64,000 nucleotides of DNA. Origin: Carcharhinus longimanus (lineage: Eukaryota). The stretch's first letter is position 1. Every line of letters begins with the position of its first letter. The DNA is taken from NCBI GenBank assembly GCA_030264375.1, contig JASCQW010000190.1, positions 25,568,497 to 25,632,496 on the forward strand, in the 5' to 3' direction. Both the position numbers and the translations under genes were made by a program. The notes under the pieces are model-generated. The model was not told where the DNA came from and ran no database searches. It worked only from the letters and a program-made list of their open reading frames with translations. This document shows positions 5,105-32,182 of the stretch, one piece after another.

Positions 5105-5192
5105 CACTCAGTGGGGCCACAGAAACATCATCATCCAAGTTAAACCCCTTATCTCCTCTTAACCTTGAGAAAGAAAGACTTCTTTTTCCACT

Positions 5193-5990
5193 ATGAAAAA
5201 CGTGAGTAGATTTCTGACCCCCACTAATATCTCTCTGGCAAATGCAGCTTCCGCAGGGACAGACTTGATTTACAAATCCATAGAGTACAAGGCTGCCTCG
5301 GTGCTGCTGGTGTTGGCCATTTGCGGAACTGGGATCATTGGGAATATTATGGTGGTCCTGGTGGTTCTGACTGCCAGACACATGCGAACCCCAACCAACT
5401 GTTACCTGGTCAGTCTTGCTGTGGCTGACCTGATGGTCCTGGTGGCTGCTGGGTTACCCAATATTTCTGACAGTTTGATTGAGGAATGGATCTATGGGCA
5501 TGCGGGCTGCCTGGGTATTACCTACCTCCAATACTTGGGCATTAATGTGTCATCATGTTCCATCACAGCATTCACAGTGGAAAGATACATCGCTATCTGC
5601 CATCCAATAAAAGCCCAGTTCATGTGCACTGTCTCCAGAGCTAAGAAAATCCTAGCATTTCTCTGGGTAATTACCTCCTTCTACTGCATGCTGTGGTTTT
5701 TCTTGGTGGATATCAACATCAATAGCAGGCAGAATGCCGAGTGCGGCTACAAAGTCTCCAGGAATCTATACTTGCCCATCTACTTCATTGATTTCACCAT
5801 NNNNNNNNNNNNNNNNNNNNNNNNNNNNNNNNNNNNNNNNNNNNNNNNNNNNNNNNNNNNNNNNNNNAGTCCTCTTCCAAACCAAGTTGAGACGGGGACA
5901 GAACGTTGGAAGGAGCGCCCCGGGACAGAGAGTAACAGCTCACAATCTTCCAGCCGGACAAGCAAGGGGGCCATCTCATCCAGGAAACAG
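5193..5990 (+). CDS. trhr2: Thyrotropin-releasing hormone receptor (TRHR2-type), coding exon 1 (N-terminus to ICL3)
   Basis: Class A GPCR motifs [63 protein letters not shown] and [14 protein letters not shown]. It ends SSRKQ at a phase-0 donor CAG|GTAATG (5990/5991). [24 protein letters not shown] and the short ECL2 fit recalled TRHR2 better than TRHR1. The N run 5801-5867 keeps frame and covers TM5. Confidence 0.92.
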
Positions 5991-6339
5991 GTAATGTCAT
6001 CTTCCAGGGAACTCGACAAGCCTCAGCTTTTGGATTTTATTAGTCTGGAAAGCTACATGAAATTCCATGACCTTTGGTGGTGACCATTTTAATGAAGAGG
6101 GAGATTGCTGAAAGTAAATAAATGATACAAGGTCAATAAAAACATTTGAAATTCTGTGGAAAATGAAAAGAAAAATTTGATAAGGATTTTCACCCTTCAA
6201 CAAGTAACGCAGTAAGGAACATTTTCTCTTAATGAAACTTCTCTGCCTGGCTTTATTTTAGACTACATGTCTCACTCAAATTGCCATGGTGATGATGCAG
6301 CCCTTATTTTTAAACCACATCTTGACTTCTGGCAATTTG

Positions 6340-7750
6340 TCCTCCCCTGACCATCTCCGTTTGTTCAATTACTCAAGATTCACCTTTTTTTAACACTCCC
6401 CTAAGTTTCATACAAACTTCCTCACTGAGGTATCTCTCTGCTTTCCTTCTTCACCCTCTGTACTAGGCAGTTTTCCATCTTTGGTGATTTCAATCTCTAT
6501 CTCCACTCTTCTTACTCTCTTGTCTCTGAGCCCCTGCTCTCACTTCCTCCGTTAATCTTTCCTTACATATTCACTATTCCCCCCAACATTCGCAATCTCC
6601 TTAATCTTGCCAACTCATGTGGCCTTGCTATTTCCATTGTAACTATCACTGATAAGGTAACCTTTGATCACTTCCTGATATTACTTTCTACCTATTTTCT
6701 CTTTTCCACTCCCAACCCCACTTCTTTCTGTGTTAACCACTGGAAAGACACTCCTGCAAATCATTTCCCACTGCACTTTCCAATTCTCAACTATCAAGCC
6801 TTTGGCTCACAAGTCATCATGACATTTCTGCAGCAACCGATCTGTTAGATCACCCTCTCTCTGCCACCTTTGAGCCCATTAAAACCAATATAGTTTCTCA
6901 TCCTAGTGATTCCCCCAGTCATTTCTCCTGCTTCCCTACCCAACCCCTTGCCTCAGCTCCCTTAAGTAGAGGGAAACAGGTTTGAATATATTTGTTGGAG
7001 AAACTAGCTTAAGCACCCTTTACCTAATCGGGCTGACCACATCAAAGTATGATTGGATCCTGGTTACCATCACGAAAACTGCTTACTGTTCAAAAATCAC
7101 GCAGGAAAGTAAAGGTGGTTCCTTTCTTTCACCACAAGCTACCTCCCTAAACCACCCTCCCTTTACTTTCACCTCCAACAACAAGTGTGAGGGCCTCATG
7201 GATTTATTGGGTGGGATTTTCTGGCCGCACTCACCATGAAACTGGAAAATCCGATTCAAGGTCAATGGATCTTTCCATGGTCCGTCCCTCATTCGCTCCA
7301 ATTCCCATGGCCGGTGAAATGGAAAAATTTGCCCCAAATTGTCACAAGTATCATGACCTTCCATTCATCTGCTTCTCCTGCTCTATTTCTAATGGTCCCT
7401 CGTCCCTTGGTGACATCACCCAAAAACACAGCATTATTCTCCACATGTACTCTGAAATCACCATCCAGCGCTTCCTCATTATCACCTCTTTCAATCACTC
7501 CATTGTCTCTGCATGCCTGACTTCCAGTAGTTCAATGAACAGAAATTTCCTCCAACTACATATTGAGATACATATTTAGTCCACTTCACTAACTCTGTTC
7601 CCTCGTAACTGACTCCATTCCTTCCCATGGGAATGGACTGAGGCTGAACCAGAATGTTTGCAAACTTAATGTCATATTTGATCTCCAGATGGGCATCTGA
7701 TCATTTATCTTTGACGCCACTAAAACTGCCTGTTTCCTCCTCTGTAACTT
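6340..7750 (+). mobile_element. Decayed L2-type LINE ORF2 fragments
   Basis: Endonuclease remnants IFGDFNL (~6477) and DHFLI (~6666) in C/T-rich sequence. It probably continues at 8570-8770 with an L2-like 3' end. Confidence 0.55.
7209..7336. mobile_element. Palindromic MITE
   Basis: GGGTGGGATTTTCTGGCC ... GGAAAAATTTGCCCC imperfect TIRs, with an inner AATGGA/TCCAT palindrome. Confidence 0.6.
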
Positions 7751-13460: not shown

Positions 13461-14388
13461 AAATATCAACTGGTGGGTATCCAGTACAGACTTTTGCCTG
13501 GGTTCAGGACATTGTGGACAAGGATCATGCCTACAAAAAGCTGCCGGCCAGTCAGAGATCTCTGGCCCTTACACACAGGAAGGCGGTTGCTCATGCAGAA
13601 AAGACATGCACCACAGGCCCAGAATCACAGAGCAGCCCAGGCCACAGTAAGTAATAATGGGTGGGGGAATCAGGGGGATGTTGACAATGATGCCACGGGT
13701 ACGGTTTTCAGTGGATCCTCCCTGCCCTTCCACAATGCCAGGTCCCTCAATCAGCCACTGAGTGTCCTTGAAAGAGGGGTGATTCTACTGGGGAATGATA
13801 AGCATAAATAGTAAGTTTATTTGTCACTTATGCCACATAGCAACATATCTCCTGTTGCTGGGTTAATACCAGAGGCAGCAGGATGAGGCACTTAATTGCC
13901 CACCAAAAGGCCTCAATTGGCAATGGGGTAGGAAAGTTGACCACAGGCCTTCCTGCACTGGACTTAATCGAGATGGAGACAGGAAGATGACGAGGTGCTC
14001 ACCCATCACATTCTGATCTGATTAAATGCTCCCTGTGCTTCCAAACACGCCACTAGAGAGGACAGTACAGCCCACCCCTGAAGTTTTTGATAGTCTTGTA
14101 CACTGAATGCTGGTTTGAGATAGTTAGATAAAATGATGGAAAGCAGATTAATTAATGTTAGTCGTTGGAAAATAACTTCACTTTTCAATACATTTCCAAG
14201 TTTTCAAATGACAAAGGTATGTCTAAATCACGTTTGCAAAAGTTTACTTTCAAAGGAAGTTCATGTAATTTGTCACCAAATTGTGCTACCATAGCTTAAG
14301 ATTTGCAAGAAACTTCCTGAAGCAAAGTGCATTTTATTCAAGATAACCTAAAAAGCTGAACACAATGTATGGATTTGATTCCTTGCAG

Positions 14389-14811
14389 GTCACTAAGATG
14401 TTGGCAGTGGTGGTTATTCTGTTTGCTTTGCTCTGGATGCCTTACAGAACAATAGTGGTGGTCAATTCCTTCATAGACAAGCAATATGAAAATGCCTGGT
14501 TCCTTTTATTCTGCAGACTGTGTGTGTATGCTAACAGTGCTATCAACCCTGTCATTTACAATCTAATGTCCCAGAAATTCAGATCTGCTTTCAAAAAACT
14601 GTGCAATTGTAGCCGAGACGACACTCAGCCACGTACCTTGTACTCAACTCCCCTTAACTACAGTGTAGTGCGAGCTCCGATCAGTGGGAGCCCTGAAGTC
14701 AATGGCAAGACACAAGGTGATAAACAGACACAGCAGGAGGAAGCTTCCAACATCAAAACGGAAGAATGTAAATCTACAGCTAAAGGCCAGATGTACTTTA
14801 GTGTTGTTTAA
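14389..14811 (+). CDS. trhr2: TRH receptor coding exon 2 (TM6, TM7, C-tail)
   Basis: Acceptor TTCCTTGCAG|GTC at 14388/14389. Translation [21 protein letters not shown]...[25 protein letters not shown]...LCNC, stop TAA at 14809-14811. The intron falls at the usual TRHR position RKQ|VTKML. Confidence 0.93.
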
Positions 14812-16283
14812 AATACGACCTTTATCTAAGATAATTTGAATCAACGTAGAAGAGTGAAATAGGGAAAGTTTCTCTGGCTATCAGTGGAAGATTATGTAAA
14901 ACATTTAGACGACATAAGTAATGCCCAGGAAAGCATGTTTAACATACCACTGGGACTGTTCTCCATATCATCTGAAACAATTTCAATTTTCTGACTGTGA
15001 TTGCAATGCTCTGCTTGAAGCTACAACAACCTTGCCCTGGAAATCTACAGTCAATGGGGACTCTCTGCACCTGACCCTGCTCATCATTCTGGGCTCAGTA
15101 ATAATATATCCTGTCTGGTGCCTGCACCCATTAGGGACAAATCAGGGTACATTGCAGGTTGGAGATGTTCAACTGCTTTCAGAACAGGAGGGGTGCTGCC
15201 CACCGACGGGCATACGTTTCCAGGCTCCTTTCAGAAAGGGGCCCACGGTTCAGAATTTCAGGAAGTCCAGGTTGCTTTTCCCAGTCACTATCCTGCAGGC
15301 TGTGACACACCTTCTCACTGGGCGCACTGCCTTGCTGGAAGATTATCAGCCCAGGGTTGGGGGAACACCTAATCTAAAAGTTCCCCAATCCTTGGTTACA
15401 CCTCCTTTGATGCAGACAATGGCCTTGACCCAGGCAGCCCCAATGAAGTGGGAAGGATGGGCTTGGACACAGGATTTTGGTGTTTACTTCACACATGCGG
15501 CCCTCACTATAAAACAAGAAGTTCAAGGTCCACTCTTGTCCATCCGCCCCCTTCCCCCACCTCCCCCACTTCCCCCAACAGCTTCATTTCAGTAATTGAG
15601 CTCCAGCTGGTGGTGCCTCAGTTGGAGCTCGCTCAGTTTGGGAAAATAATTTTGGGCTTTGTGGGTGCAGCCCTTGGCGGGACCCACAGGGGTTTATGGG
15701 GGCAGGTGGGTGGGCGATGGAAGTAGCAACTGTCAGCAACCAGTGCTGCACATAAATCTTCTTAAAAAATGGAAGATGCCTTTTAACACTACAAGCACGC
15801 ACAGAAAACCTCCTGCACTCAGGGCAGCTGAATCTCCACCAGGGCCAGAAAGCATATACAAGGCTAGCATGTTATTTTCAGGCATTCTTAGGGCCTAGGC
15901 TACTGCCCTTTAAAATGGCCATTTTAGCCACCACTTTCCATCCAGAAAACAGGCAGTAATTTCTAGTCCAGTGATCACATTACACAGTTTTCTTTATGGT
16001 GGAATATACACTTGAGGGGAAGTATTTTCAATTTACTCGATAGAGAATAAAACTAACTTTATAGCTGTGGAGCCAATTGGTCGGGGGCATAGATAGAAGC
16101 TCAATTTAAAATGGGCTGCATTTTACAACAAAGATACAATAAACTGCATTGATTTCACTCAAGCTCCAATTTTCACCTTAATTGGCCCATGGTTGTATTT
16201 TGCAGTTGCTTCCTTGACAGTGTTGTTGCTGACTCACTTGAAAATGAAGAAATGGATACAGGCCCTCACCTAGAATAGATAGA

Positions 16284-16411
16284 GGCTGGAATTCTCCGAT
16301 CTCATATGCCCCACCACTGCTGCCAGCAAGAATGGAGGATTTGGTGCTCAGCCAAATCTCCGTTCACTGCAGCAGGATCACAACTGGAGGTGAGGTTAGA
16401 GAATCCAGCCC
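16284..16411. mobile_element. Palindromic MITE (related copy at 22794-22926)
   Basis: TIRs GGCTGGAATTCTCC / AGAGAATCCAGCCC, with a central hairpin GAATGGAGGATTTGG-TGCTCAG-CCAAATCTCCGTTC. Confidence 0.7.
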
Positions 16412-16709
16412 AGAGTGCAGGGGTGGGACACAGATTTGATCCGTGTCCTCGACTGCCTCTCTGTCACAAATATTCCACTATAGAGAGTGGGGGAGCAATT
16501 TCTCCAGAGGGGGACAAATATCTGTGGGAAACATGCATTCGCTTTAGATTGGCTTCAATGGAGGCCTAGGATATCTCATGGCAAGTGCATGAAAATAGAC
16601 TGTGAGGACATTTTTTTAAAAGAGCTTCTAAACTCTTCAATGAAAAGCACCTTTAATTTTAGTTTAAATATATTTATCTTTGGATCCATCTCAGAATATA
16701 TTATTTTTT

Positions 16710-17050
16710 CATTCACTGGAACTGGACATTGCTGCCAAGGCCTGTATTTGTTGTCCATCTCTAATTGCCCTTGAATGGCTTGGTTTCAGAGTACAGTGAA
16801 AAGTCAGCTACAATGCCCTGTGGGTCTGGATTTAGCTGTAGGCCAGACCAGGTAACAATTTTCTCCCGAATCAGAGGGGTTTTTACAACAATTGATGAGG
16901 ATTGCCAGTCACCATTACCATAACAGCCAACTCCACAGATTTGAATCATTGGATTTAAATTCCAGCAGCTGCCATTGGGGTTTGAATCTGTGTCCACAGC
17001 ACATGGATTACTAGTCCAGTGACATTCCCACAACACCACCATCTCCCCTA
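16710..17050 (-). mobile_element. Deu-domain SINE (SacSINE1-like), decayed
   Basis: TGTAGGCCAGACCAGGTAA Deu core on the minus strand, with a tRNA-like head near 16980-17050. Confidence 0.65.
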
Positions 17051-17229
17051 CACATAGTTCCATTTGGAATTGTAGCCCAATTAAAAGAATAGATGATTTT
17101 AGAAAAAAGGATTGAAGTTCACTCTGGATTATAAAATGATTAAGATTTTGAGATCATGCTTCATCTTCCAATTCGGGAAACATCTGTTTTCTTGGTATCT
17201 TGTGGCTCTTTTCCTGAGCTTCTCTTCCA

Positions 17230-17545
17230 GAGTGGCACAGTGGTTAGGATTACTGCCTCATAGCACCAGGGATCCAGGTTCGATTCCCAGTTTGGGTCAC
17301 TGTCTGTGTGGAGTTTGCATTTTTCTCAGTGTCCGCATGGGTTTCCTCTGGGCGCTCCAGTTTCCTCCCACAATCCAAAGATGTGTGGGTTTGGTGGATT
17401 GGCTATGCTAAATTGTACCTTAATGTCAGGGGATTAACAGAGTAAATGCAAGGGTTATGGGGATAGTGCCTGGGTGGGATTATAGTCAGTGCAGAGTCTC
17501 TGGGCCGAATGGTCTCCTTCTGCACTGTAGGATTGTATGTTTCTA
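17230..17545 (+). mobile_element. HE1-type V-SINE
   Basis: GTGGCACAGTGGTTAG (A box), GGTTCGATTCC (B box), V-domain, and tail GAATGGTCTCCTTCTGCACTGTAGGATT. Confidence 0.88.
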
Positions 17546-18669
17546 ATTGTTGGATGTGCATGCTCTCTGTTACTGTAATCTATCTTACTTTGTTTGTGTA
17601 CCAAAACCCAAGTTTAATTTTAACTGTTTGATTTTTTACTCTCTTATTATAGCATGTTAAATGTACCTGTGTATATATTCTGATACTTTATCCTGTATTG
17701 ACAGACATATCTCAGATACCAATTTGTTTGGGTGCATGTTACTTGCTCAGAAAAGTCCTTCCTTATTATTTAAATACAAACACTTTTTGTGGTTAAGTCC
17801 AGTTGATACAATGATACTTACGTATTTCAGTGGTGTTAATTGTTAAAAAGATTAAATAACCTTAAAAGTAATGCAAAGTTCATGTTTGCAACGGTGTAAC
17901 AATATGCCAGAATATATTCATATAAGTGAGGTACTAAACTCATTATCAGCTCAGTTACTTGCATGCATGCATTCTGACAGGGAAATTGGACAGTATCATA
18001 ATGTTAAATGGTGTTGGTTATGAAACTGTTTAATGCAAATCATAGATAAGTAATTTTTGATATGCAATATAACATCTTAATGCATGAGAAATTTCTACAG
18101 TTTGTTTGCCCGATAATGTAGTGTTTAAAGCACTGCCGTTATAGTGTTGTAATTTCCGAGTCCAGGCTGGGTCTGCCAATTTTCTGTCAATTTAACACAG
18201 ACTAGCTTTAGCCTATGTCTGAAGCTCTTTCAGTTATCAACTGAAGGAGGAAGTATAACGTAATATTTAAGGTGGTGATATGCTGTGATTACTCCAGTCT
18301 AGGCTGCATCTAGCACTGGAACAGTATTGGCACTATGGTGGCTGCTTTCACCGGCTGAAGTTGGAAGATTACAAAGAAGCTGCATATATATTTCTGCATG
18401 GCAGGATAGCATAAATAACTTTTGCATAATTAAGCAGCTTAGTAAAAACAACAGGCATTTATTTAATTTATTTATCTCCTACTGCATCTGCAAGTGAGCA
18501 GACTATGAATCCGAAACCAAACTGTTAACAATTAGCTTTGGTGACATGGAACAGTTTGAAAATACATTCTGTGAAAGATGCTGAGGGGTTTTAGTCTTGT
18601 GCTGTCATTTTCTTTTCACTAAAAGCCTCTTGCTCGTATGTGCTTCCCGTCAGCCAGATAACCAGGCAG

Positions 18670-18852
18670 GCTTCTCGGCCTTTTGGCTAAGATCAAGCAT
18701 CGGATCAAGCCCAGGCTGGGGGTGCAGTACCTTACCCTTGCCAGCTTGGATTTTGTTTGTCTCTCTTGTGGGGACCATGAACCGGATTCAATCGAAACTT
18801 GAAATTGTTTTTCCCAAGCAAGGGATGGATTTGGATTTGCCCCGCTCCACTC
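18670..18852 (+). ncRNA. U2 snRNA-derived, remodelled element (variant gene, pseudogene or U2-headed repeat)
   Basis: GCTTCTCGGCCTTTTGGCTAAGATCAAG (18670-18697) is identical to the vertebrate U2 5' end. There is a stem IIb-like GTCTCTCTTGTGGGGAC, an Sm-like AATTGTTTTT, and an SL III-like AGCAAGGGATGGATTTGGATTTGCCCCGCTCCACTC. The branch-point recognition GTAGTA is absent. Confidence 0.75.
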
Positions 18853-19176
18853 TGAGGATTTGTAACTTTAAGGATGGAGTGGAAAATTTGAAAAACAAAT
18901 CTAGACAGTCCAAGTTCCCGCATTCGCTTCCAGTGATTTTAGATCACTGGCTACAAGTCAAATGAGCATCTTACTTATTGCTCCATGTGACTCAGTATCT
19001 TACTGCTTTGAGAGGCAGTAAGTTGAGCTGGTGAGATGCTGAAAACTCCTTAGCACAAGTGAATTTTTGACTGTTCCCAAACTGAAGCTAATACGGTTAT
19101 CAATAAATCTATGGACTATCCAATTAATTACATATTTTTCAATTTGATCTAGAAGCAGCCTAGACACAAAAATGTT

Positions 19177-19316
19177 GGTGGGAATTTTCCCATCGGGCCT
19201 GCCATGGGAATTGTAGTGGGTGGCGAGGAGAAGGGAGGGGTGCACCATGCAATGGTCCATTGATCTCAGGTGGGATTTTCTGGTTTTGGGATGAGCACAG
19301 CTGGAAATTCCTGCCC
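19177..19316. mobile_element. Palindromic MITE
   Basis: GGTGGGAATTTTCC ... GGAAATTCCTGCCC ends, central CAATGGTCCATTG. Similar to copies at 7209, 49141 and 55079. Confidence 0.65.
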
Positions 19317-19679
19317 GTTGGTGGAACAATAGCCACACATGAGTTAACTGCAGTGGGGTTTTGCAGTTGTTGCACGTATATAATTTAAAAAAAATGAATT
19401 TTGCATAATTTGCATCTAATTTGCTTGAATTTTAGATTTGAGCCTGTAAACTGATGTTAATTATATAAATGAGAAATGTTACATTGCTGGCACACTCTCA
19501 GCTTGCTGTAGTATTTGGCAGAATTAGCAGCTGTTTTGACCAGATGTATTGTTCAGTACGAATGTATCCCTGATTTCTAAATGATTTTTATTGTATAATG
19601 TAGTATACGGTATAATGTAATATGAATGTCATGTTGAATATTGAAACTGGGATATCGATATGTTACTTTGGCTTGAAAA

Positions 19680-19715
19680 AATAAAAATGAAAACGTGCAC
19701 TTTTTGTTTGTCGTG
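19680..19715 (+). terminator. Candidate polyadenylation signal of trhr2
   Basis: AATAAA at 19680-19685 followed by a GT/T-rich tract (TTTTTGTTTGTCGTG), at the end of ~2 kb of AT-rich, mostly repeat-free UTR-like sequence. Confidence 0.4.
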
Positions 19716-21289
19716 ATAATTCTGAATTACTTTCATTCCTGTTCTTTTCAATAATGGCAATGTGGAGTTCTACACTTAGTTTCTACATCCATTGCTTAGC
19801 TTGAACAGATTTCCAACTCCTTGCATCGTTTTATCACACTTGCTCCAAGAAAGAAAGACTTGCATTGACATAGTGCCTTTCACAACCTTAGGATGTTCAA
19901 AAACACAACACAGCTAATGGCATGTTAGTCACTGTTGGAATATAGAAAATGAGGCAGTCAAGTTGTAGACAACAAATTTCTACCTGTCTCCATCCAGGCA
20001 GTGCCAGCTGGTGGGATGTTCACGTATGGGAGGCAGTGATGGACTCAAGGTAGCAGGCTGGAGGTGCAGAAGGAGGCATACCAATAACAAAGTGGTCAAG
20101 TTAAAAAGCCCACTTTCATTTGCTAATAATTTGTCCAGTTCTGTAAATGAGTACAAAGCCTACTTCACTCTACACCGCTCAGCCCCTCAAACCGTCATAC
20201 CATACCCTCTTCACCCTTTCATCCATTCACTCTTTTCACCTCTTCACCTCCTTCACCCCAATCTCCCCATATCCACTTTATAATGGTAACTCACAAGCTC
20301 TATAATAACTTTTGGTGGATTTGAAAAGGTCATGAATGTATTAAAGCAAACAAACAACACTTGAATCAGCACTTAATAACCATTATCCTCTTAGAAGCTC
20401 ATAAATCTAACAAAATAAACATACTCCACTGGATAGCTGTATAAACAAACCTTGCAGTGCAGAATCCAATAATGTATTTGAAGGCAAGAAAAATCTCAGA
20501 CATCTGTTAAAACTTTGAAATAGCAAAATAGATGACTGAGATGCTCTTTAAAGAATGACTGAAAACCCTGGGAAAAGTTTCAGCATTTAGCTATTGATCT
20601 CACATTGGGCTACGCTTTCTGTATTGTACAATGCATAATTGCACCAAATCCAGTGGGCAAATTTGAATGCAGCTGAAGACTCTATGTGCCTCATTTATGG
20701 TTTACATCAGCACTCAGCAGATGTGATTTAGAAAAGTTTCCAAAACATGGCTGCTTCCATGAAAGCCGCAGAGATTCTGAAATGTTTATTGACGGAATGG
20801 TGCCAGCAACTTTGAAACAGCAACCTGCCCACCCCCTTTCCTGCAACACTAAAAATAGCCAGAGATGGAAATGTTGGGGAATAAACTTCCACATCCGTAC
20901 TCCAGTGTTATATTTTTCTTCCACCTCACACTGCGTAGTGAATAATCCAGTCTACAATTCCTACCCTTCATTAAAGAATCATTGAGTCCCTACAGAGCAG
21001 AAAGAGGCCATTTGGCCCATCGAGTCTGCACTGACCACAATCAATAACCTTCAAAATCTAAAAGCAGCTGTGTTTTGGCAGAGCAAGTTGCATGCCAACA
21101 ATGGCTAACAGTGAGTTCATTTTGACAACAGTATGAAGAGAAAGTCTCAACTTGTACGCCATTGAACTCACTGACTGCTGTTGTTTTCATTGTATAGATG
21201 CATACCAAAAAGCATGAGAACAGTTAAAGAATGGAGAATGACTTTGCAAATTAGTGCATTCAGAACTATCACAAATATATTAAAAGAGT

Positions 21290-21540
21290 CAAAGAACAAC
21301 ACAGCACGGGAAACAGGCCCTTCGGCCCAACGAGCCCGCGCCGCCGTCCCATTGTCTCAGTGANNNNNNNNNNNNNNNNNNNNNNNNNNNNNNNNNNNNN
21401 NNNNNNNNNNNNNNNNNNNNNNNNNNNNNNNNNNNNNNNNNNNNNNNNNNNNNNNNNNNNNNNAGCATAGTTCCCCTCCTCTGTCCCTGAGAGGACCAAT
21501 CTTCCCTCTAACCATCCTTTTGTTTCTAACATAGGAGTAA
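21290..21540 (-). mobile_element. CR1-type LINE 3' end
   Basis: AAAGAACAACACAGCACGGGAAACAGGCCCTTCGGCCCAAC. The same end occurs at 61153-61216. Confidence 0.7.
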
Positions 21541-22793
21541 TATTGTTTTGATGGTAATCATTTGTCCCCCCAGAACAAAAGAAGACTATCAATAATCACT
21601 AATTTAACAGAATCCTATAGGATGGTTTAAGTAAATGACTTCACTCTAACCAACACATTCCATGCTACACTTCAGGCAGGAACCTACTGACCTGAGGCTG
21701 ATGGTCATAATAAGTCAATGTCACTTTCATTCTTAGCGTAGATATTTCATTTGACGGAGGTAAATGTCTATTTGGAAATTACTTTGTGGCTTTTCTTTTG
21801 TCCCTTGAACTTTAATCTTTTTAATTCCCCTCCTCAGGCTAAATGGGAATAAATTCTGTTCAGTGCCCTGATTGGTATTAGAGTAATTCCTTGTCTAATC
21901 CAGGGTTGAAATACAAGAACAGCATTAAGGCAACAAGAAAATAATAGTTCTGACAAAATAAACCTGCTTCGAGACTATAAATAGCTGGAGCATTGGATCT
22001 TTAATATCTTTTGTAATGTAATAATGAACAGATAAGATTTCACGTCTGGTGCAGGGAAAAGATCATAAATCACTATGTGCAAATAACAGTGTTGAAAGAA
22101 GTCAGTGGAGTTTCAGTGGCGTGGTGACAGTGTTCCTAACTCTGGGTTTGAATCCCACCTCAGGACTTAATGTTGCTGAAAGTATATTCACCACATAGAC
22201 TAATTATCAGGCTGTAGATCCTTCCAGTGCAGGTGGGAAGCTACAAGAGTTTCCTGACACTTTGCCAAGCATAATCATGGATCAATTCAACGGAAGTCCA
22301 TGATTGCCAATGCCTCTTAGACATGGACCCTAAAGGAGGAGACAAAGATGTCAGCACCTTAGCAAGAATGCTAAGATGCATTCTTTTGTTTGACAAGGAC
22401 AAAATAATAGAAAACCATACTTCATTTCACCAAATTGACCTCAAGTACATGTGACATAAAGGTGCATTATCCAGTTAACATGAATATGCCATGTGCTTGC
22501 AGCAAATACAAGCAGGTTTGCCAAATCATTTGTCATTAGAGAAGATAAACAAATATTATTCACTATTCCCACATTGCCACAGCATACATTTTTAAAAAAT
22601 CATGTAAACTTAGAAAGAGATACAAGGAAGTGATCAGAGATAATTAAACCCATGGGAATTTGGAGGCCACATGAGATGGCAAAATCAGGGAGATAGCTGT
22701 GCATGAGATTGGGCGTGCGAATGTGGAAGGAGGATAGGATGTCAGTTAACTGAGAGGAAAGAGGAAAGAATAAGGATGAAATAAAAGAGGATG

Positions 22794-22926
22794 GCTGGGA
22801 TTCTGTGCTATTATGCCCCACTATCACTGTCAGCAAGAACAGAGAATTTGGCGCTCAGCCAAATCTCTATTCATTACAGTGGGACTGGAGAATCCCAGCC
22901 ATGGATGAAGTTGAAGAATCCCAGCC
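22794..22926. mobile_element. Palindromic MITE
   Basis: GGCTGGGATTCT ... AGAATCCCAGCC, with the internal GAGAATTTGGCGCTCAGCCAAATCTC shared with the 16284 copy. Confidence 0.7.
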
Positions 22927-23029
22927 GATATGTCTCATGGTGCAGTGACTGAGAGAAAAAAGTAGTAAAGCTACTTGGCCAGAATGTTACGGCCATTTAT
23001 GTCAGTGGGATTTTTCTAACCTAAGGTGT

Positions 23030-23172
23030 TTAAGTTGGGGGGGATTAGTGAGGTAAATGTGTGGCATTAAGGGGATATGGTGGGGGGTGGGCCTGGCTGA
23101 GATGCTCTGTCAGACAGGTAATGCAGACTCAATGGACCAAATTGCCTCTTTCTGCACAGTAGGGATTCTATG
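23030..23172 (+). mobile_element. HE1 SINE 3' part
   Basis: GCAGACTCAATGGACCAAATTGCCTCTTTCTGCACAGTAGGGATTCTATGA. Confidence 0.7.
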
Positions 23173-23179
23173 AATGTTC

Positions 23180-23855
23180 AACCATGTATCTGTATTGTCA
23201 TTAAAACTGCCTGTTTCTACTCTTGTAATAACACCTGATTTTTGCCCCTGCCTCAGCTCTTCTGTTGCTGAAACCCACATTCCTGTGTTTGCTATCTCCA
23301 AACACCTATTCAAGTGTATTTCTGGCTGGTCTCTTACATTTTACCCTTCATAACCTTTAGATCATCCAANNNNNNNNNNNNNNNNNNNNNNNNNNNNNNN
23401 NNNNNNNNNNNNNNNNNNNNNNNNNNNNNNNNNNNNNNNNNNNNNNNNNNNNNNNNNNNNNNNNNNNNNTTAGATAATCCAAACCACAGCTGCCCCTGCC
23501 CTAATTAACACTGAATCCCATTTATCCATCACCTCTGTGTTTTCTAACAAATACTGGCTCCAGCTATAATACCTTGATCTTAAAATTCCTATCTTTGTTT
23601 TCAATTCCCTCCACGGTCTTGTCTTCCTCCCGATCTCTGTAATCTCCCACAGTTTGCAACTCTCCAAGAAATCTGCACTTCTCTCTAACCTTTTCAGCAT
23701 TGTAATTACTCCACCACTGGTGAATGGCCCTTCAGCTGCCAAGCACCTAAACTTCAGAATTTCCTCCCTTAACCTCTCCAGCTCTCCATCTCACTTCCCT
23801 CTTTTAAAACACTCCTTAAACCTATAGCTTTGACCAAGTTTTTGATCACCTGACC
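23180..23855 (+). mobile_element. L2-type LINE 3' fragment
   Basis: CATCCA...CACAGCTGCCC, TGGCTCC...TAAAATTCC and GGCCCTTCAGCTGCC...CTCCTTAAACC...TTTGACCAAG remnants. Confidence 0.6.
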
Positions 23856-24289
23856 GAGTCACTCTCCAATGAAGTGAATATTATCATTTATGAGTGAATC
23901 ATGTGGTACAGAGGTAATAACTGATTGAGCACCAGTCACTGTTCAGACCAGCAGAAAACAAAGCTGGAAACCAGTGAACCATCACAAATGAATGGGCTTC
24001 TGTGCATTACAAATACTGCCGCACTATATTGTGTATTCTGAGCCAGTAAGGTGCTTGGAGGTTGGACAGTCATTGCCTGTTATGTGTTATCCTTTCTATT
24101 TTGTGGAATATTTCATTCTTTGCGATTCATCACCTGAAGAAGCCAAATCTTTTCTAAGATCTCATGTTATTTTATGCAGCCCATTTGATAGTCTGTGAGG
24201 TCCTGATCGTTGCACAATAAAACTTAATTAAAATCAGCAGCTGAGGTTAAAAGAACAACCCATCTATATGAAATACAAGAGATATTATA

Positions 24290-24835
24290 TTTGATTTGAT
24301 CTGATTTATTATTGTCACATGTACAGTGGAAATATTGTTTCTTGTGTTATACAGACAAAGCTTACCGTAGATAGAGTATATAGGGGAGAAGGAAAGAAGA
24401 TACAAAATGTAATGTTACAAACATAGCTAAGGTGTAGAGAAAGATCAACTTAATATAAGGTAGGTCCATTCAAAAGTCTGATGGCAGTAGGAAAGAACCT
24501 GATCTTGAGTTGTTTGGTATGTGACTTCAGACTTTGATACCTTTTTCCCAAAGGAAAAAGGTGGAACAGAGTATGTCTGGGGTGCATGGGGTTGTTGATT
24601 ATGCTGGCTGCTTTTCCAAGGCAGTAGGAAATGTAGACAGAGTTAATGGATGGGAGGCTGGTTTGCTTGATGGACTGGGCTATGTTCACAACTCTTCATA
24701 GTTTCTTGCATTCTTGGTCAGGGCAGGAGCCATACCAAACTGTGACACATCCTGAAAGGGTGCTTTCTATGTTACATCTGTAAAAGTTGTTGAGTGTCAT
24801 AGCAGACATGCCAAATTTCCTTGGCCCCCTGAGAA
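24290..24835 (-). mobile_element. Rex1/Babar-type LINE 3' fragment
   Basis: ORF 24450-24689 reads KAASIINNPMHPRHTLFHLFPLGKRYQSL...FFPTAIRLLN, with a (TTTGA)n tail. A short second copy lies at 32935-33080. Confidence 0.8.
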
Positions 24836-24994
24836 CCAATTGAGTTCAAACAACTAACAGGCAACGGGTATCACTGACAAAGCTAGCACCAACTGTCCAT
24901 TTCTAATTACTTTTCACAAGCTGGTTATCATATTATGTGCTTAATATGGGTTCTTTATGTTGCAATGGTGGTGGTTCATTGATGAGATCTTGAG

Positions 24995-25350
24995 GTTCAT
25001 TGGTCGTTTATGGGGTGTGGGTGTCATTGGCTGGGTCAATATTCATAGCCCATTCCTAAATGCCCTCCATTTCATAAGGCTTTTGAGAGTCAATCACATT
25101 ACTGTGGCTCTGGAGTCACATGTAGATCAGACCACGTAAGAACGACGGACTTCATTCCCTAAAGGAATGAAAATGAACCAGATGGATTTTTGACAAAAAA
25201 AACAATGGCTTCATGGTCATCATTAAACTTTTAATACTTATTGAATTCAAATTTCACCACTTGCCATGAAGGGATTTGAACCCACGACCCCAGATCTTAC
25301 TCTCTGGATTACTAACCTAGTGACAATACCATTACACCGCTCCCTCCCCT
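24995..25350 (-). mobile_element. Deu-domain SINE
   Basis: GTGGCTCTGGAGTCACATGTAGATCAGACC...TCCCTAAAGGA...GAACCAGATGG, with a head ending CGCTCCCTCCCC. Confidence 0.75.
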
Positions 25351-25704
25351 ATGTACAGTTTCAACTATTGTCTTTCATGGTATAGCTTCCACCATTCAGG
25401 CTCTCTGCTTAGGGAGTTCTGTTTCCTGACCATGTGACTACATACATCACCCTGTGGGTGGTACCATTCTCCAATCCCACACTAACCCTTGCTCTTATGT
25501 TATTATGCATGCAGGCACACATCATCACAGTGGGGAACTACCACAGTCTATGTGATGTGGATAGACCTGCAATGCTGTTTGGCATGGAATTCCAGAATTT
25601 TGACCCAGCAACAGTGAAGGAATAACAATGTATTTCCAAGTCAGAATAATGTGTGACTTGTTGCTGAGCTGATCTCACTTAGGATCACCGATGCCTGTTT
25701 AAGC

Positions 25705-26350
25705 ATGATGGCATAATGGTTAGCCCTGCTGCCTCATAGCGCCGAGGGTTCAATTCCTGGCTTGGGTCACTGTCTGTGCAGGGTTTGTACGTTCTCCTCA
25801 TGTCTGCATGGATTTCCTCCGGGTGCTCTGGTTTCCTAACACAGTTTGAAAGGCATGCTGGTTAGGTGCACTGGCGATGCTAAACTCTCCATCAGTGTAC
25901 ATGACACATGTATTGGGATACAGTCATTTTCTGGTGACTATGGAATCATAGAATCCTAAAGTGCAGAAGGAGGCCATTCCCCTGCACCAGCCACAATCCC
26001 ACCCTGGCCATATCCCCATAAGTAAAAAGTCTGACAACACCCCACATCATATCCCCATAACCCCATGCATTTACTTCAGCTGGTTCCCTGACACTAAGGG
26101 GCAATTTAGCATGGCCAATCCACCTAACCCACACATCTTTGGACTGGGGGAGGAAAATGGAGCATCTGGAGGAAACCCACACAGACACGAGGAGACAGTG
26201 CACGCTACTAAAGGAATTGAACATTGGTCTCTGGTGCTGTGAGACAGCAGTGCTAACCAGTGTGTCACCGTGCAGCCTACGGATTTTCACAATACCTTCA
26301 TTGCAGTGTTAATATAAGCCTATTTGTGACACTAATAAATAAATAAATAA
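25705..26350 (+). mobile_element. V-SINE with alternative (type-2) tail, split by an HE1 insertion
   Basis: Head and V-domain at 25705-25900. The tail GGATTTTCAC...TTCATTGCAGTGTTAAT...GTGACACTAATAAATAAA resumes at 26281-26350. Confidence 0.8.
25945..26277 (-). mobile_element. HE1-type V-SINE nested in another SINE
   Basis: ATCATAGAATCCTAAAGTGCAGAAGGAGGCCATT ... TGTCACCGTGCAGCC, flanked by CTATGGA / CTACGGA. Confidence 0.85.
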
Positions 26351-28232
26351 CTCCAGAGACAATGTTCGTAGAGCGTGTGGAACATTTCCTTTAGTCCCTT
26401 AAAGATTTTTGGACATAAACATGAATGAGTTTTAAAATAAATATAATATCCTTTGATTTCCTGTTTCATGCTCTTCAGCGGTTTCTCTCTGTAAACTCAC
26501 AATAACAATTCTCCAGAATTGGTATTATTGATCCACACTCCTATACCGCAGGTATCCATTTTCTGTCTCAGCCCATCTTCTGTTTTCAAACCTGAAGATC
26601 CAAGATAATCCATTTCCTTTCCTTCTGCTTCGCTGCCCACTCCTTTTCACTCTTTGTTCCTTTCAGACTTGTGTAATGAACGGGGGAATGAAGTATTCAA
26701 ACTGCTGAGTAAAGTATCAACAAAGGTGCTGAAAAACGGAGGCTTGATAAAAGAAAGAACTTGCATTTACACATCTTTTACATCCTCTTGATATCCCAGA
26801 GCACTTCATAACCAACAATATATTTTGGAAATGTCATCATTATTATCTTGTGGGAAAATGTTGCTGCCAATTTGCTAACAATAAAACTCTACACAGAGTA
26901 ATTACCAGATCATTTGATACGGTGGCTGTAATGTTCTTAAATGATTGAATGGTCTGACGAAAGAAATATATTCTGGAAATTGATTTTCTAAGAGTAACCG
27001 AGAGAGAATAGAAAAACAGCAGCTACTAAACGGTTAATTTGTTGAAGGCTTCATATGAGAAAGAAAAATATCTGACTGGTGTAGCAGAGATTAATCCTAG
27101 GAATGTGGGATTGGGTCACAATGTTAAGGGAGCTTGATCCAGCCTGTACTTTTCATAACTTTCAAGTGCTTGATTGTGGCAGTGCATGCAAAAAGCAGAA
27201 ACTACGTCCTTATTCAGAAAATTATCTTTCATCATGATTAGTGACATCAATTGCAGCATCCCAAAAGACAGAAATAGGTAGCTGTAGCTATTAGAGAGGA
27301 GGCGGATAGGCTTAGATTGTAAAATTATATGCTAATCTTTTTTTTCCATTTCTCCAAGTCCCCTCTTCAGATTCATGTGAGTTGCTACCAGAGCTTCCCA
27401 CTTTGGAGCAGCTACTGAGCTAAACAAAGCCTGGCTCATCTTCTGATTTTGCTGTCAGTACTCACAGGGTAGGCAGTTGACATCTGCACCCATTGATTAT
27501 TATGCTGGGCTTGGAAATGAATTTTTTGAACTCCTATTAAATACAGCACATGAAGACATGAGATGGGTTAGGATTGGCAGTAAAAGGTTTTTAATACTTT
27601 GGGATATAGATAAAAATAAAAGTGCCAGTATTTCCTCTGATTTGGACTTGCACCAATTTGTAATTGTAATGGCACATTTTTGAGACTATTTATCTTTGTA
27701 TATGCAGTCGAATGGGAATAAACTAGTCTTCATTTGGGTACGTTTGAACTCATTGTGCTGCTCACAGTCTCTTTTTTGTCTTGCAAAGATTCATAGTCTG
27801 CAACAAGGGGGATTGTAAATATTCCTGGCTGAACAAATTTGGATTAGAGATGTTTTGAGAAAACCAATACAGGTCCTGTGTATTTTTCTTTGCTATTTGG
27901 ACGCTGAAGATGGCTGCATCATCAGGTAGTATTGGGCAACTGAGGGAATATAGCCATGGCCGAGGATGTCTTGGTGAAGGGTACAAGAACCCTTGATGCC
28001 CTTGATGATCTGACTGTATATGATGTAAGGGGGAAAGGAAAAGGGCAGTATTTCTGACTGAAGCAGACCCATAAGTGTATGAGACACTCAACCCAGTAAA
28101 GCCAAAAGACATGCCACTCTTAGACATTTTGTATGATCTTTAGCAGCAATACCTTGCCAAGCCACTGGAGATTGCATAAAGCCATCAGTTTGCAACAAGG
28201 AATCAGTTACCCAGTGAGGGCATTGAGAGTTT

Positions 28233-28334
28233 GGCCAGAATTTTACTGCCATACCCGCCCAGAAACAGAATTCTCCATTAGCCTCAGGCAGGATTTGACT
28301 AACTTCTCCCGAACAAGGTTGTAAAATACTGGCC
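28233..28334. mobile_element. MITE (inverted relative at ~44533-44633)
   Basis: GGCCAGAATTTTAC ... GTAAAATACTGGCC TIRs. The internal GAATTCTCCATTAGCCTCAGGCAGGATTT matches the reverse complement at ~44570-44600. Confidence 0.7.
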
Positions 28335-28604
28335 TTTATGTGGCTTTGAAAAAACTTGGTCATTGTAATGTTGGAGAATTTCAAGAGGCAGCATTGCTGA
28401 ACAGGCTTGCATGCGGTTTGAAAAGTAAACACATTGTTGGTGACATTGTCAAAATTAACTTTTGATATATCTTGCCAAACAGCAATGTCCAGGGACATGT
28501 CAGAACGTGACTCAAGAGAAGTTAGTGTTAACAATCACTAGTTGTCTATTGAAGTTAATAAGTTGTAGCTGAGTAAGCAGGATGCTTCAATGATAGCAAT
28601 TAAT

Positions 28605-28756
28605 AGTAAGAAGTCTTACAACACCAGGTTAAAGTCCAACAGGTTTATTTGGTAGCAAACACCACTACCAAATTACCAAGTTTGCTACCAAATAAACCTG
28701 TTGGACTTTAACCTGGTGTTGTGAGACTTCTTACTGTGTTTACCCCAGTCCAATGC
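28605..28756 (+). mobile_element. Penelope-like element end with inverted 5' arm
   Basis: 56-bp inverted repeat (28605-28660 / 28680-28735, one mismatch) continuing GTGTTTACCCCAGTCCAATGC. The same end is seen inverted at 60591-60655. Confidence 0.7.
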
Positions 28757-29398
28757 NNNNNNNNNNNNNNNNNNNNNNNNNNNNNNNNNNNNNNNNNNNN
28801 NNNNNNNNNNNNNNNNNNNNNNNNNNNNNNNNNNNNNNNNNNNNNNNNNNNNNNNNNNNNNNNNNNNNNNNNNNNNNNNNNNNNNNNNNNNNNNNNNNNN
28901 NNNNNNNNNNNNNNNNNNNNNNNNNNNNNNNNNNNNNNNNNNNNNNNNNNNNNNNNNNNNNNNNNNNNNNNNNNNNNNNNNNNNNNNNNNNNNNNNNNNN
29001 NNNNNNNNNNNNNNNNNNNNNNNNNNNNNNNNNNNNNNNNNNNNNNNNNNNNNNNNNNNNNNNNNNNNNNNNNNNNNNNNNNNNNNNNNNNNNNNNNNNN
29101 NNNNNNNNNNNNNNNNNNNNNNNNNNNNNNNNNNNNNNNNNNNNNNNNNNNNNNNNNNNNNNNNNNNNNNNNNNNNNNNNNNNNNNNNNNNNNNNNNNNN
29201 NNNNNNNNNNNNNNNNNNNNNNNNNNNNNNNNNNNNNNNNNNNNNNNNNNNNNNNNNNNNNNNNNNNNNNNNNNNNNNNNNNNNNNNNNNNNNNNNNNNN
29301 NNNNNNNNNNNNNNNNNNNNNNNNNNNNNNNNNNNNNNNNNNNNNNNNNNNNNNNNNNNNNNNNNNNNNNNNNNNNNNNNNNNNNNNNNNNNNNNNNN

Positions 29399-29610
29399 GG
29401 ACACTAAGGGGCAATTTCTTAGCATGGCCAGTCAACCTAACCCACACATCTTTGGACTGTGGGAGGAAACCGGAGTACCAGGAGGAAACCCATGCAGACA
29501 CAAGGAGAATGTGCAAACTCCACACAGACAGTGACCCGAGCCAGGAATCAAACCCAGAACCCTGGAGCTGTGAAGCAGCAGTGCTAACCACTGTGCTACT
29601 GTGCCGATCC
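29399..29610 (-). mobile_element. HE1-type V-SINE (3' part in gap)
   Basis: GACACTAAGGGGCAATTT...GGACTGTGGGAGGAAACCGGAG...GCAGTGCTAACCACTGTG. Confidence 0.85.
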
Positions 29611-29639
29611 ATACAATTGGTTGAGATCCATACGATCCA

Positions 29640-31075
29640 AAGCACAAGGATGTCCAGTCAAAATTCACAGGGCATCACAGTCCAAGTAACATTGGATAGA
29701 ACTCCAATAAACCTAGAGGCTGGCACAGAAGCCTCATTTTTTGAAGAATGAGTTGTCCGTTGATGTTGTGTTATATGGGTAGCCAGTGTTGTAACCCCTA
29801 AAAAATGCAGATTCCAGTTGCTATGTGGCCTTCATGATTAACACTGAGGGATGAGTTTGACAAAGAGTCCAATGTGAAATTATCTTTGGTGGTCAATGTT
29901 AGATAAGGACATGGAAGTTAAACTGTGTAGTGCATGTCAAGTAGTAGAAAAGAAGCCACCATCAGTAGCTTTGGAACCATGGAATTGGATACTTAGAGTG
30001 TGGCAGAGGCTGCACATAGATCTTGCAGAATTTGTAGCAGTTATTCATTGTGATAGATTGTGAAGCGGGTTGAAGGGTTTCCAATAAATCAAAGAACAAT
30101 CAACTAGCAAAACTCTAAATATTTTGGGCAGTTTGTTTGCTGCTTATGGGTTCCCGGGGGAAATTGTGCCTCGGTTCTGTTGAGAAGAGTCTGTAAAATT
30201 TGTAAGAATGAATGGGGTAAAACAAAAAGGATTTCCACTGCGTCAAGCTGCTTCCAAAGGACCAGCAGAGTACATAGTACAAATTATTAAGCATGCTGTA
30301 GTTAAAAAGTTCTAGATACAAATTGGAAGAAACACTTCAACATTGAATGGGGAATATTTTGTTGTAACATACCTCACAGAACTACAGGATGCTAGCAGAA
30401 TGGTTTCCTAGAAAACAACCTAGGATAAGATTTTTATCGTTGAAGTTACATTCAGCACAGTTGGCAGAAGAGAAAAAAATGAGGCAGAGAGTCATAATGG
30501 GGATACAGTGAGTAAAAGAAGTCTCAAGTTCAACTAGAAGTTAAAGTGAAAGAACATCTTCATAAGTGGTTGAAGTGGCAACCAGAACGGGTCCTAAAAC
30601 ATGTGGTCCTCCTACCTATTTAGCCAAGATGTTTGATTGTAGAAAGGTTAGGTTTGTACATATAGATCATGTTTTACCTTCACAGGTTCATGTAGAAGGA
30701 GGGAATTGGGAAGAATTAAATGAGTCTGATGAATTCGATAGTTGGGATACAAGTAGAGTAACAATAGTTACCCCAACACCAATTGAAACCAGTTCAGATC
30801 CAAGTCAGAATCAGACTGACATGCCTGGTAAAGTTGAAAATTTAATTGAAGATCAGTATTACTTTTTGTTTGGAGAAAACGTCTCCTCAGGCCAAATTGG
30901 GTCAAGATCCTGCCCAATTTCTGCAAGTTTAGGTGAAGAAAGGGGATATCTCCTTAGGAATCAAAAACTAGTGATCAAGTTGGATTTATAAATATATAAG
31001 AAGCAAGAAATATGTGCAAGTTGTATGGAATTTGAACTTTGTGTAACTTTTTCATTATGAAGAGTGGAGTGTAAT
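29640..31075 (+). mobile_element. Deleted Ty3/Gypsy LTR-retrotransposon relic (protease + integrase + PPT)
   Basis: Protease-like ITVQVTLDRTPINLEAGTEAS. Integrase motifs LEPW.W..VWQRLHID (~29970-30020), FAAYGFPGEIV (~30135), NGVK and ASKGPAE. C-terminal GPPTYL...RFVHIDH. Purine tract GAAGAGTGGAG followed by TGTAAT at 31070. Confidence 0.75.
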
Positions 31076-32182
31076 TGTTCTTTTTTGTGGTGACTTGTAT
31101 ATGTATATAGAGTTAAAATGGAATAACCTAATTTTCAGTTGGGTACTTTTGAATGCATCTGCTGCACACAGTCTCTTTCCTGATCTGCAAAGTTCTCACA
31201 GTAATTTTAACAAGCCTAACAGACTTTTCTCACATAATGAGCACATCTGTTGTGCATCTGGCATTCCCTAAGCATTGACTCTTAAGTATGTAAGTCTCAC
31301 GTACTCACCAATATGTTAGAACAATATGTTGTTGTGCAGTAACCTTTATTAATTAGCAATTATTCATCACATGGAATAACTTACTAGCTGTTAGGTGTGC
31401 TAGAGACAATATAGTAGGTGACTCACAAGCCCTGCAGTGACTAATTATAATGAAGGGAAGATGTAACCTTTCATTTACAGAGTAAGAGGCCAACTCCAGT
31501 AATGGCTGAAATGTCTACCAGAATGACATGCCATTTTGCCTCTTGTGAAATGTGTCACTTTTTTGGCAATTGACAAAACTAAAAAGATGTATATTTAATT
31601 GCAACATTTTTGTTTTGGCAGAAGCTGGTTTTAATTATTACAATGCACTCTACTGACTTTTCACAATTTCCCCTTTCTGAGTACAAGGCCTTTTCGGCTT
31701 TATAAATGTCACATCTAGTGGGACAATTTACATCATTTGAATGACAGGTTTTTGTACAAAATTCTACTTAGAAGTCAACTTTTGTTTTCATTCTCATGAA
31801 AGATCATTGACTAGAAATGTTGAACGAGAGTTTTCCTCAGGTTTAGGATCTTGGTATCAGGGCCAAATGAGAACCCCGAGGCCACACTCACCCGGCAGTG
31901 AAACCAGCGATGTAACCCTCCTGAAGGCAACTCCTTAATTAGCCAACATCACAGCTGGCATCCAACAAAGCATGGTGGACATGCTCTTGATGTTCTCAAC
32001 CAACTAGAGGACCATCACCTAGGTAGCCCCACCAGGAGAGGTGGGCATGGGTGAAGCAGGTAGGAGGAGATCACAAAGAACCAGGAACACGGAGATTCAC
32101 TCAGAGAATGAAAATTTAAACGAAAACTCGAGAAGGGCCAAGGCAGTGAGTCCCTCAAAGAGGGGATGAAACCCCTTCCTGG

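Follow-up and report, generated by a model that had tools for sequence, protein, structure and literature searches.

Several described systems resemble the locus considered here. The SINEU retroposons of crocodilians offer one parallel (PMC4494074). SINEU-3 is described as the 5' 32 bp of U2, a middle U2 piece, and a 3' end of about 40 bp that is not derived from U2, while SINEU-1/2 carry stacked U1 and U2 heads and partial duplications. In SINEU, U2 heads have been added at the 5' end more than once, parts have been duplicated, and a break falls at U2 nt 32 (PMC4494074). Among the snRNA classes of Noll 2015 (PMC5322556), truncated U2 heads with target-site duplications form the largest, with 666 in human and 63 in anole, and 32 of the 33 rows of U2 retrocopies visible there are 32-44 nt long. 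Among the vertebrates examined there, none of them a fish, tailless copies are given for therians and anole only; they are also given for maize. Lastly, Keno (of the Tx1 clade) and Utopia insert before nt 39 of U2 (PMC4640811).

The present locus lies in a 64,000-nt stretch of Carcharhinus longimanus DNA (hereafter the window, of which 59 kb is called sequence). An earlier sequence-only reading of the window had proposed SINEU as a model, and the choice was apt; on the preferred reading, the element is built like the crocodilian one. Both have a U2 head ending close to nt 32 and a second U2 piece further in; both finish in roughly 35-40 nt unrelated to U2, contain partial duplications, and lack an internal promoter. 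A U1-like piece may precede the head here as well. The U1/U2-derived head that characterises SINEU is present as U2 nt 4-31, a U1-like 13-mer before it being uncertain. However, SINEU-3 is a plain internal deletion, whereas in the shark element, head and SL III are separated by about 100 nt that are rearranged or new. It also differs in lineage, in having no clean poly(A) tail and no Mariner target that could be seen, and in being known from one copy in the window.

With tailless U2 retropseudogenes, as characterised in PMC5322556, the element shares an almost complete 5' end, a 3' end of the head in the single-stranded region before SL IIa, the lack of a tail, and, less clearly, a short bracketing direct repeat. 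It departs from them in that the head ends at nt 31, 13 extra bases follow, the target is not A-rich, and U2-like sequence continues afterwards. Keno and Utopia likewise interrupt U2 near the branch-point box, but they join U2 ahead of nt 39 and are followed by clean U2; here, the break comes after nt 31, what follows has changed heavily, and the 87 nearby ORFs scanned include none of a retrotransposon. Relative to the Rfam U2 family (RF00004) and to the expressed U2 variants of PMC8457000, the element has the same nt 4-31, a degenerate SL III, and the loop motif of SL IV and the branch-point box. Unlike U2, it reaches 25.7 bits against a gathering score of 46, lacks a PSE and a consensus Sm site, has a displaced or changed branch-point box, has lost SL IIa, and does not carry SL IV at its 3' end. 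No report of a U2-derived element in sharks was found in the literature; Repbase and Dfam lay outside this search, and a catalogued family is conceivable.

Overall, the element is probably an ordinary U2 retrocopy or chimera with an odd internal order. The more specific account that we tentatively put first, with a little less than even confidence, is that of a non-functional U2 retro-mosaic at one locus, in which a young head sits on an older, rearranged body. Its features and their surroundings are collected in Table 1.

Table 1. Features of the U2-derived element and its surroundings (window coordinates).
Feature	Position	Strand	Remarks
trhr2 first coding exon	5196..5993	+	end approximate (assembly gap 5801-5867); ORF 5169-6083
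trhr2 last coding exon with stop codon	14389..14811	+	ORF 14347-14811
Octamer-like 7-mer, possible DSE remnant or chance	18421..18427	+	7/8; 246 nt upstream of U2 start position; 19 in window
Direct repeat, left copy (9 nt)	18662-18670 within 18658..18670	+	8/9 identical; ends at the head's first base
Perfect U2 head (SL I and U6-pairing region)	18670..18697	+	U2 nt 4-31; nhmmer E 7.3e-07
Block like U2 SL IV 5' arm and loop	18697..18732	+	split by duplicated 8-mer 18703-18710; end 18722-18732 equally branch-point-box-like
New hairpin	18711..18749	+	-20.3 kcal/mol
Weak colinear likeness to SL IIa/IIb	18733..18777	+	898-3147/7720 tiles, not significant alone; IIa unpaired, IIb-like stem 18759-18775
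Degenerate tract at Sm position	18802..18812	+	10/11 to L001, A missing; 129-134/14580 tiles
U2 SL III-like block	18817..18852	+	2-6/7734 tiles; outer stem can pair, inner broken
Terminal hairpin	18846..18883	+	1268-2064/2894 tiles, no significant U2 likeness; excludes SL III fold
A-rich stretch	18884..18899	+	11/16 A; decayed tail or 3'-box-like
Possible second, decayed U2 head with perfect 8-bp inverted repeat	18923..18955	+	50-207/19440 tiles, post hoc
Best-looking downstream poly(A) signal	19680..19685	+	richest in T downstream (0.55) among 11 hexamers on the plus strand, 14812-21500

The head is the firmest part of the locus. The sequence-only reading had taken it for the first 28 nt of U2; the identical stretch is real, but it corresponds to nt 4-31 rather than 1-28, U2 nt 1-3 being absent. 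It covers SL I and the U6-pairing 5' region, and about 3e-10 such 28-mers would be expected by chance in the window. The entire RF00004 score comes from it, and Rfam at gathering level gives 0 matches in the whole window, U2 included. Identity at 28 of 28 positions has a probability of 0.001 for sequence at 79% identity and of 0.24 at 95%, and the single CpG of the head is retained in a window with a CpG o/e of 0.26. On the preferred reading, the perfection of the head reflects youth rather than selection. In unrelated eukaryotic contigs, U2 heads were also found broken at nt 33 (L010) and nt 41 (L003).

Three other candidates were discarded. A supposed older, decayed head just upstream (18638-18661) is not significant (1836-7707 of 19,368 tiles). 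A minus-strand box C/D guide RNA directed at U2 finds no box C in 18560-18900, and the nearest box D lies 17 nt from the antisense stretch; Rfam gives no scaRNA match either. A ZNRD1-AS1_2 match of 24 bits against a cut-off of 60, to a sequence-only lncRNA model, is taken as chance. Directly before the head, 18608-18669 (+) comprises a pyrimidine-rich run, a branch-point-like word, and then three AG, and so resembles a 3' splice site.

Reference sequences for the likeness tests came from a bacterial genome collection scanned with the head, which returned 32 loci, all of them eukaryotic contaminants. Rfam, run on 20 of the 32, identified full U2, U1, U5, and 5S genes, from which nine distinct U2s and five U1s were drawn. 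Three vertebrate-like U2s (L001, L021, and L024) are termed fish-like, a label that is inferred. All reference U2s are stand-ins, the shark's own U2 and tetrapod U2 having been outside the scripted tests, and this limits every likeness test below.

The contaminant loci deserve mention in their own right. L001, L003-L015, L017, L019-L024, and L026-L032 are bacterial MAG records with eukaryotic U1/U2/U5/5S arrays and histone stem-loops, that is, host contamination (20 of the 32 loci scanned). One further contig carries a full-length U2 (L025:2998-3187, +; 150.8 bits) whose branch-point box and SL IIa are unlike those of the other eight U2s while its IIa stem still pairs, making it a candidate natural U2 variant. 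Heads of this variant type, with a common non-U2 tail, occur at L002:2913-3031, L016:2998-3151, L018:3001-3201, and L025:3448-3566. The tail ends in short trinucleotide repeats, and the heads are in one case stacked in tandem; by their sequence, these copies appear to form a U2-headed repeat family in that eukaryote.

Behind the shark head, the sequence very probably derives from U2 as well. General searches see only the head. Without it, RF00004 yields no U2 match at E<=10; nhmmer with profiles of U2 32-end and of U1 finds nothing at the element beyond the head; and a covariance model of nine U2 3' parts (R1, 32-end) reaches at best 0.2 bits there. The same model gives 18.2 bits (E 0.0046, a rough value) on an unrelated AT-rich stretch, 16643-16806 (+), with many broken pairs and probably through composition bias.

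Tests in which hand-placed segments of the element were set against same-length window tiles as background favour the SL III piece and the piece resembling the SL IV arm or branch-point box (about 0.0003-0.03 of background tiles). Boundary-free tests of likeness to the U2 body give 0.004-0.17 of background tiles. Likeness of 18775-18860 to the U2 Sm region plus SL III is equalled by 0-2 of 2868 tiles, and that of the 193 nt after the head to U2 32-end by 12-49 of 2780. Aligning whole U2 to the locus while skipping the repeat-bounded insert brought no improvement (64-184 of 2746). By eye, the SL III-like block agrees with dog U2, its best match among the ten amniote U2 sequences shown, in 30 of 38 columns (E about 0.004), a score that 7-12 of 2228 tiles reach against the stand-in U2s. 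The idea that the element is more than a bare 28-nt fragment has modest support from the SL III-like and SL IV-arm-like blocks, against searches with Rfam, nhmmer, and R1 that detect nothing past the head.

It is decidedly unlikely that the head alone is U2, that is, a simple tailless retrocopy of nt 4-31 that sits in unique DNA between the copies of a 9-nt target-site duplication, all further likeness being chance resemblance selected by eye. Such a reading would fit the failure of Rfam, nhmmer, and R1 beyond the head and the unremarkable scores of strict local alignment (398-1168 of 2228 tiles). It also draws on a boundary-free colinear chain, in which sense U2 was equalled by 32-296 of 1842 tiles, and on an unordered boundary-free test in which antisense U1 plus U2 did at least as well as sense (11 versus 245 and 61 versus 73 of 836 tiles). 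On the other side, the Sm-plus-SL III and SL III likenesses stand in U2 order, the agreement with dog U2 and the SL IV-arm block have to be accounted for, and in each of the three settings of the colinear chain, sense U2 outscored its antisense, reversed, and complemented controls. Controls with U5 and 5S stayed at chance level. A lax local alignment had gap costs that were too low and gave mixed results (3-1011 of 2000 shuffles over the nine U2s); it is given no weight.

The order of the pieces is less clear than their presence. With the three fish-like U2s, reading 18697-18750 as SL IV is equalled by 16-97 of 5806 tiles, and by eye, it matches dog U2 at 14 of 17 positions, plus a 6-mer at the head junction. 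Reading the same stretch as branch-point box plus IIa is equalled by 158-1407 of 5806 tiles, or by 2-26 of 550 GC-rich tiles. Both readings can hold because the U2 SL IV loop and the branch-point box have a motif in common. The loop of the new hairpin had been likened to that of SL IV; the likeness exists, but the branch-point box is matched about as well. No branch-point box directly follows nt 31-32; a 9/11 likeness lies 24 nt downstream, inside the hairpin, with IIa unpaired. SL IV at the 3' end of the element, where the terminal hairpin lies, was rejected as being at chance level.

A plausible order, going by these alignments, is thus the head followed by a circular permutation of the remaining U2, which might in turn be the outcome of template switching at the common motif. 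The domain shuffling proposed in the sequence-only reading has modest support in so far as the SL III-like and SL IV-arm-like blocks are out of order, but it is plausible rather than proven; the downstream pieces and their order are weakly shown. A U1/U2 mosaic was also considered and is kept as a minor point. Hand-placed tests speak for it, and 18698-18722 is U1-like (35-96 of 14,582 tiles), but boundary-free tests do not, with U1 likeness equalled by 438-597 of 836 and 254-764 of 1842 tiles.

Two repeats mark the head. The exact 8-nt repeat (18691-18698 and 18703-18710) is present as had been described, and 30 of 19,499 background positions have an exact 8-mer recurring within 20 nt. A 9-nt direct repeat, which the sequence-only reading does not mention, brackets the head at 8/9 identity. 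Its right copy (18711-18719) forms the 5' arm of the new hairpin, and the head and the duplicated 8-mer lie between the copies; 151 of 11,558 background positions do as well. The repeat abuts the 5' end of the head, while 13 extra bases separate the head's 3' end from the right copy. It is G+C-rich, and the site lacks the A-rich L1-type target consensus. An outer repeat of 12/16 lies away from the element ends and has a chance frequency of 42 in 1342. The 13 nt at 18658-18670 are similar to U1 nt 1-16 as well, if a gap of 3 nt is allowed (3-6 of 23,358 tiles, post hoc). This piece and the other U1-like one fall on the direct repeat. These insertion signs, namely the repeat, the U1 likeness, and the second head, were noticed after looking, and their probabilities are optimistic.

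The uneven decay reported earlier is borne out, with a perfect head beside a best body block of 30/38. Because the direct repeat brackets the perfect head, this unevenness can be explained by two insertion ages. The two-age model is weakened by the lack of a significant older head upstream, by the 13 extra bases, and by a target that is not A-rich.

Uneven decay can also be read in terms of a family. The element may be a copy of an undescribed SINEU-like family in sharks, its master composed of U2 (perhaps also U1) pieces with flanking promoters and mobilised by a Tx1/L1-type LINE; the head would then have been renewed by repeated 5' addition, and the body would differ as the master evolved rather than by decay of the copy. 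This is rather unlikely. The architecture parallels SINEU-3 and SINEU-1/2; the two U1-like pieces, the A-rich 3' end, and the possible second head are what such a family could leave; and the LINE1 superfamily is reported in all vertebrate lineages (PMC4350176). Set against this, the U1 likeness disappears in boundary-free tests and the U1-like pieces overlap the direct repeat. The tail is not a clean poly(A), the sole outer repeat does not sit beside the ends, and Kojima 2015 (PMC4494074) found SINEU in crocodilians only.

There is one copy in the 59 kb of called sequence, which is weak evidence against a low-copy family, and the flanks are unique within the window except for one small repeat 350 nt downstream. 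The common SINE of the window has, by comparison, 14 further matches. This SINE-like repeat is about 310 nt long and abundant, with copies 67-84% identical at 2585-2900, 17232-17546, 26053-26273, 29400-29605, 52099-52408, and elsewhere, one of them between the trhr2 stop codon and the element. It may resemble SINEs of the shark HE1 type. Short open frames beside assembly gaps (36600-36733 and 47700-47765) resemble the C-terminal end of a reverse transcriptase, putatively of the CR1/L2 type.

Secondary structure adds one strong feature to several ordinary ones. The new hairpin folds as drawn in the sequence-only reading. It is stable relative to dinucleotide shuffles (z -2.18; 19 of 500), and 7 of 19,514 other 39-nt tiles are as stable. 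Its inner stem is stable in six of six folding contexts, while the outer stem ranges from 0.09 to 0.99. Several changes in its 3' arm relative to the fish-like SL IIa improve pairing with the 5' arm, by eye. Retained pairing, claimed for the element at large, is an overstatement: only this new hairpin is unusually stable, the IIb-like (50 of 500 shuffles), SL III (190 of 500), and terminal (34 of 500) stems are not remarkable, and neither is the whole element (z -1.45; 12 of 200).

For the SL III-like segment, the SL III fold has a pair probability of 0.0 in all five contexts containing it; its inner stem is broken, as is SL IIa. A IIb-like hairpin is present at 18759-18775, but compared with L001, its two C-to-T changes fall in the 5' arm only (by eye) and are not compensatory. 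The terminal hairpin does have its 7-bp stem (18846-18852/18877-18883), though with ordinary stability. The suggestion that selection has kept the pairing is not upheld, since most stems are at chance stability and the SL III fold is at 0.0.

Signals of an snRNA gene are sparse. Consensus motifs for the Sm site, the octamer, and the 3' box served as references. The vertebrate snRNA promoter layout follows PMC4494074. In five of six fish-like snRNA genes, the PSE core lies at -61 to -65; no PSE was found about 60 nt upstream of the element, whose score is matched or exceeded at 1439 of 1535 background positions and is low for two alternative start sites too. The PSE matrix derives from five fish-like genes, and the shark PSE may differ. 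A U tract (18803-18812) claimed as Sm-like does occupy the Sm position of L001, but neither the A nor the 3' G expected of an Sm site is there; no A-U(n)-G occurs at 18802-18812, the nearest match (at 18749) having four U. The octamer-like 7-mer and a 3'-box-like 8-mer at 18888, which also occurs in the 3' box of the L001 U1 gene and nine times in the window, lie at roughly snRNA-gene distances.

A working variant snRNA, one of the possibilities first raised, is unlikely because the element lacks a PSE, a canonical Sm site, and the native 5' end of U2. It is very improbable that the element is a U2 gene, an old genomic duplicate with its flanks, that decayed in place until gene conversion renewed its 5' end, or one that Keno or Utopia interrupted. 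The octamer-like and 3'-box-like motifs at plausible distances, and IIb, the Sm position, and SL III standing in U2 order, would suit a decayed gene, but the missing PSE and an SL IV that is not at the 3' end would not. For the broken gene, the insertion before nt 39 disagrees with a break after nt 31, and Pfam finds no reverse-transcriptase family among 87 nearby ORFs.

The genomic setting bears on function. The neighbouring gene had been named trhr2, and protein matches uphold the name for this elasmobranch. The first-exon product (200 aa searched) is 98% identical to receptors of Carcharodon and Scyliorhinus, its bony-fish matches carry the name TRH receptor 2, and the top PDB match of the last-exon product is a TRH receptor (E 1.4e-43). 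The element lies sense to trhr2, 3.86 kb past the stop codon, and no assembly gap comes within 2.4 kb of it. Between stop codon and element there are four poly(A) hexamers (16046, 16138, 17080, and 17851), and the signal at 19680, if used, would place it inside a 4.9-kb trhr2 3' UTR. A location within the 3' UTR is possible, going by these hexamers, but unproven because the four precede the element while the best-looking signal follows it. Pfam found no second gene near the element in 87 of 103 ORFs of at least 55 aa (14812-34000), with two weak sub-cutoff matches; the 16 omitted ORFs lie inside SINE copies or beside gaps. The tRNA scan gave 0, and plasmid and phage collections were without match.

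It is unlikely that the element is a conserved, functional U2-derived RNA, whether in the trhr2 3' UTR or as a processed nuclear RNA, with SL I and the U6-pairing bases under selection. The new hairpin would present a U2B''/U1A-type loop or an altered branch-point box, and the element would attract U6 or U2 snRNP proteins, as a decoy or landing pad, and thereby keep the transcript nuclear or determine how stable it is. Several features invite this view: a perfect head against a much-changed body, a strong new hairpin with a U2-derived loop and 3'-arm changes that improve pairing, a sense orientation with a good poly(A) signal downstream, and the octamer-like (-246) and 3'-box-like motifs. They are countered by the missing PSE, consensus Sm site, and U2 nt 1-3, and by the broken IIa and inner SL III stems with one-sided transitions in IIb. 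The context-dependent outer stem of the hairpin and the four earlier poly(A) hexamers count against it too, and a genome scan favours finding rare perfect heads. Human variants with disrupted Sm sites are unstable and poorly bound by Sm proteins (PMC8457000).

A bolder version is quite unlikely, slightly more so than the plain functional element. It posits a U2-derived RNA conserved across chondrichthyans, or perhaps gnathostomes, with a circularly permuted SL IV arm on the new hairpin in place of the branch-point box and an intact U6-pairing head. Such an RNA would function within the trhr2 3' UTR, or would be processed into a nuclear RNA that takes no part in splicing but binds U6 or U2 snRNP proteins; it might be related to the master of SINEU-3, whose break falls at the equivalent point.

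The retro-mosaic remains the reading we prefer. Here, a LINE reverse transcriptase would have copied U2 RNA while switching templates, laying down the SL IV 5' arm and loop, then IIa-IIb, and then the Sm region and SL III. The switch to IIa-IIb may have occurred at the motif common to the SL IV loop and the branch-point box. The body would then have decayed to roughly 60-80% identity before a fragment of U2 nt 4-31 was added in front by internal priming; the duplicated 8-mer and the 9-nt direct repeat would be traces of this late insertion. The element would now be a passenger in or just beyond the trhr2 3' UTR and would not give rise to a separate RNA. We infer reverse transcription, switching between templates, two insertion ages, and lack of function on the strength of an exact head beside a 30/38 body block, stems mostly at chance stability, no PSE core, and one copy in the window. 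The account is weakened by the silence of Rfam, nhmmer, and R1 on downstream homology, by the test in which antisense matched sense, by the very stable new hairpin, and by octamer-like and 3'-box-like motifs at snRNA-gene distances.

What the element means depends on which reading holds. As a lone retro-mosaic, it matters little, but it hints that truncated U2 retrocopies form in sharks too. If it belongs to a family, the literature found contains no earlier SINEU-like retroposon from any lineage but the crocodilians. If it is conserved, a spliceosomal RNA would have been reused as an mRNA or nuclear regulatory module, which would be a new role.
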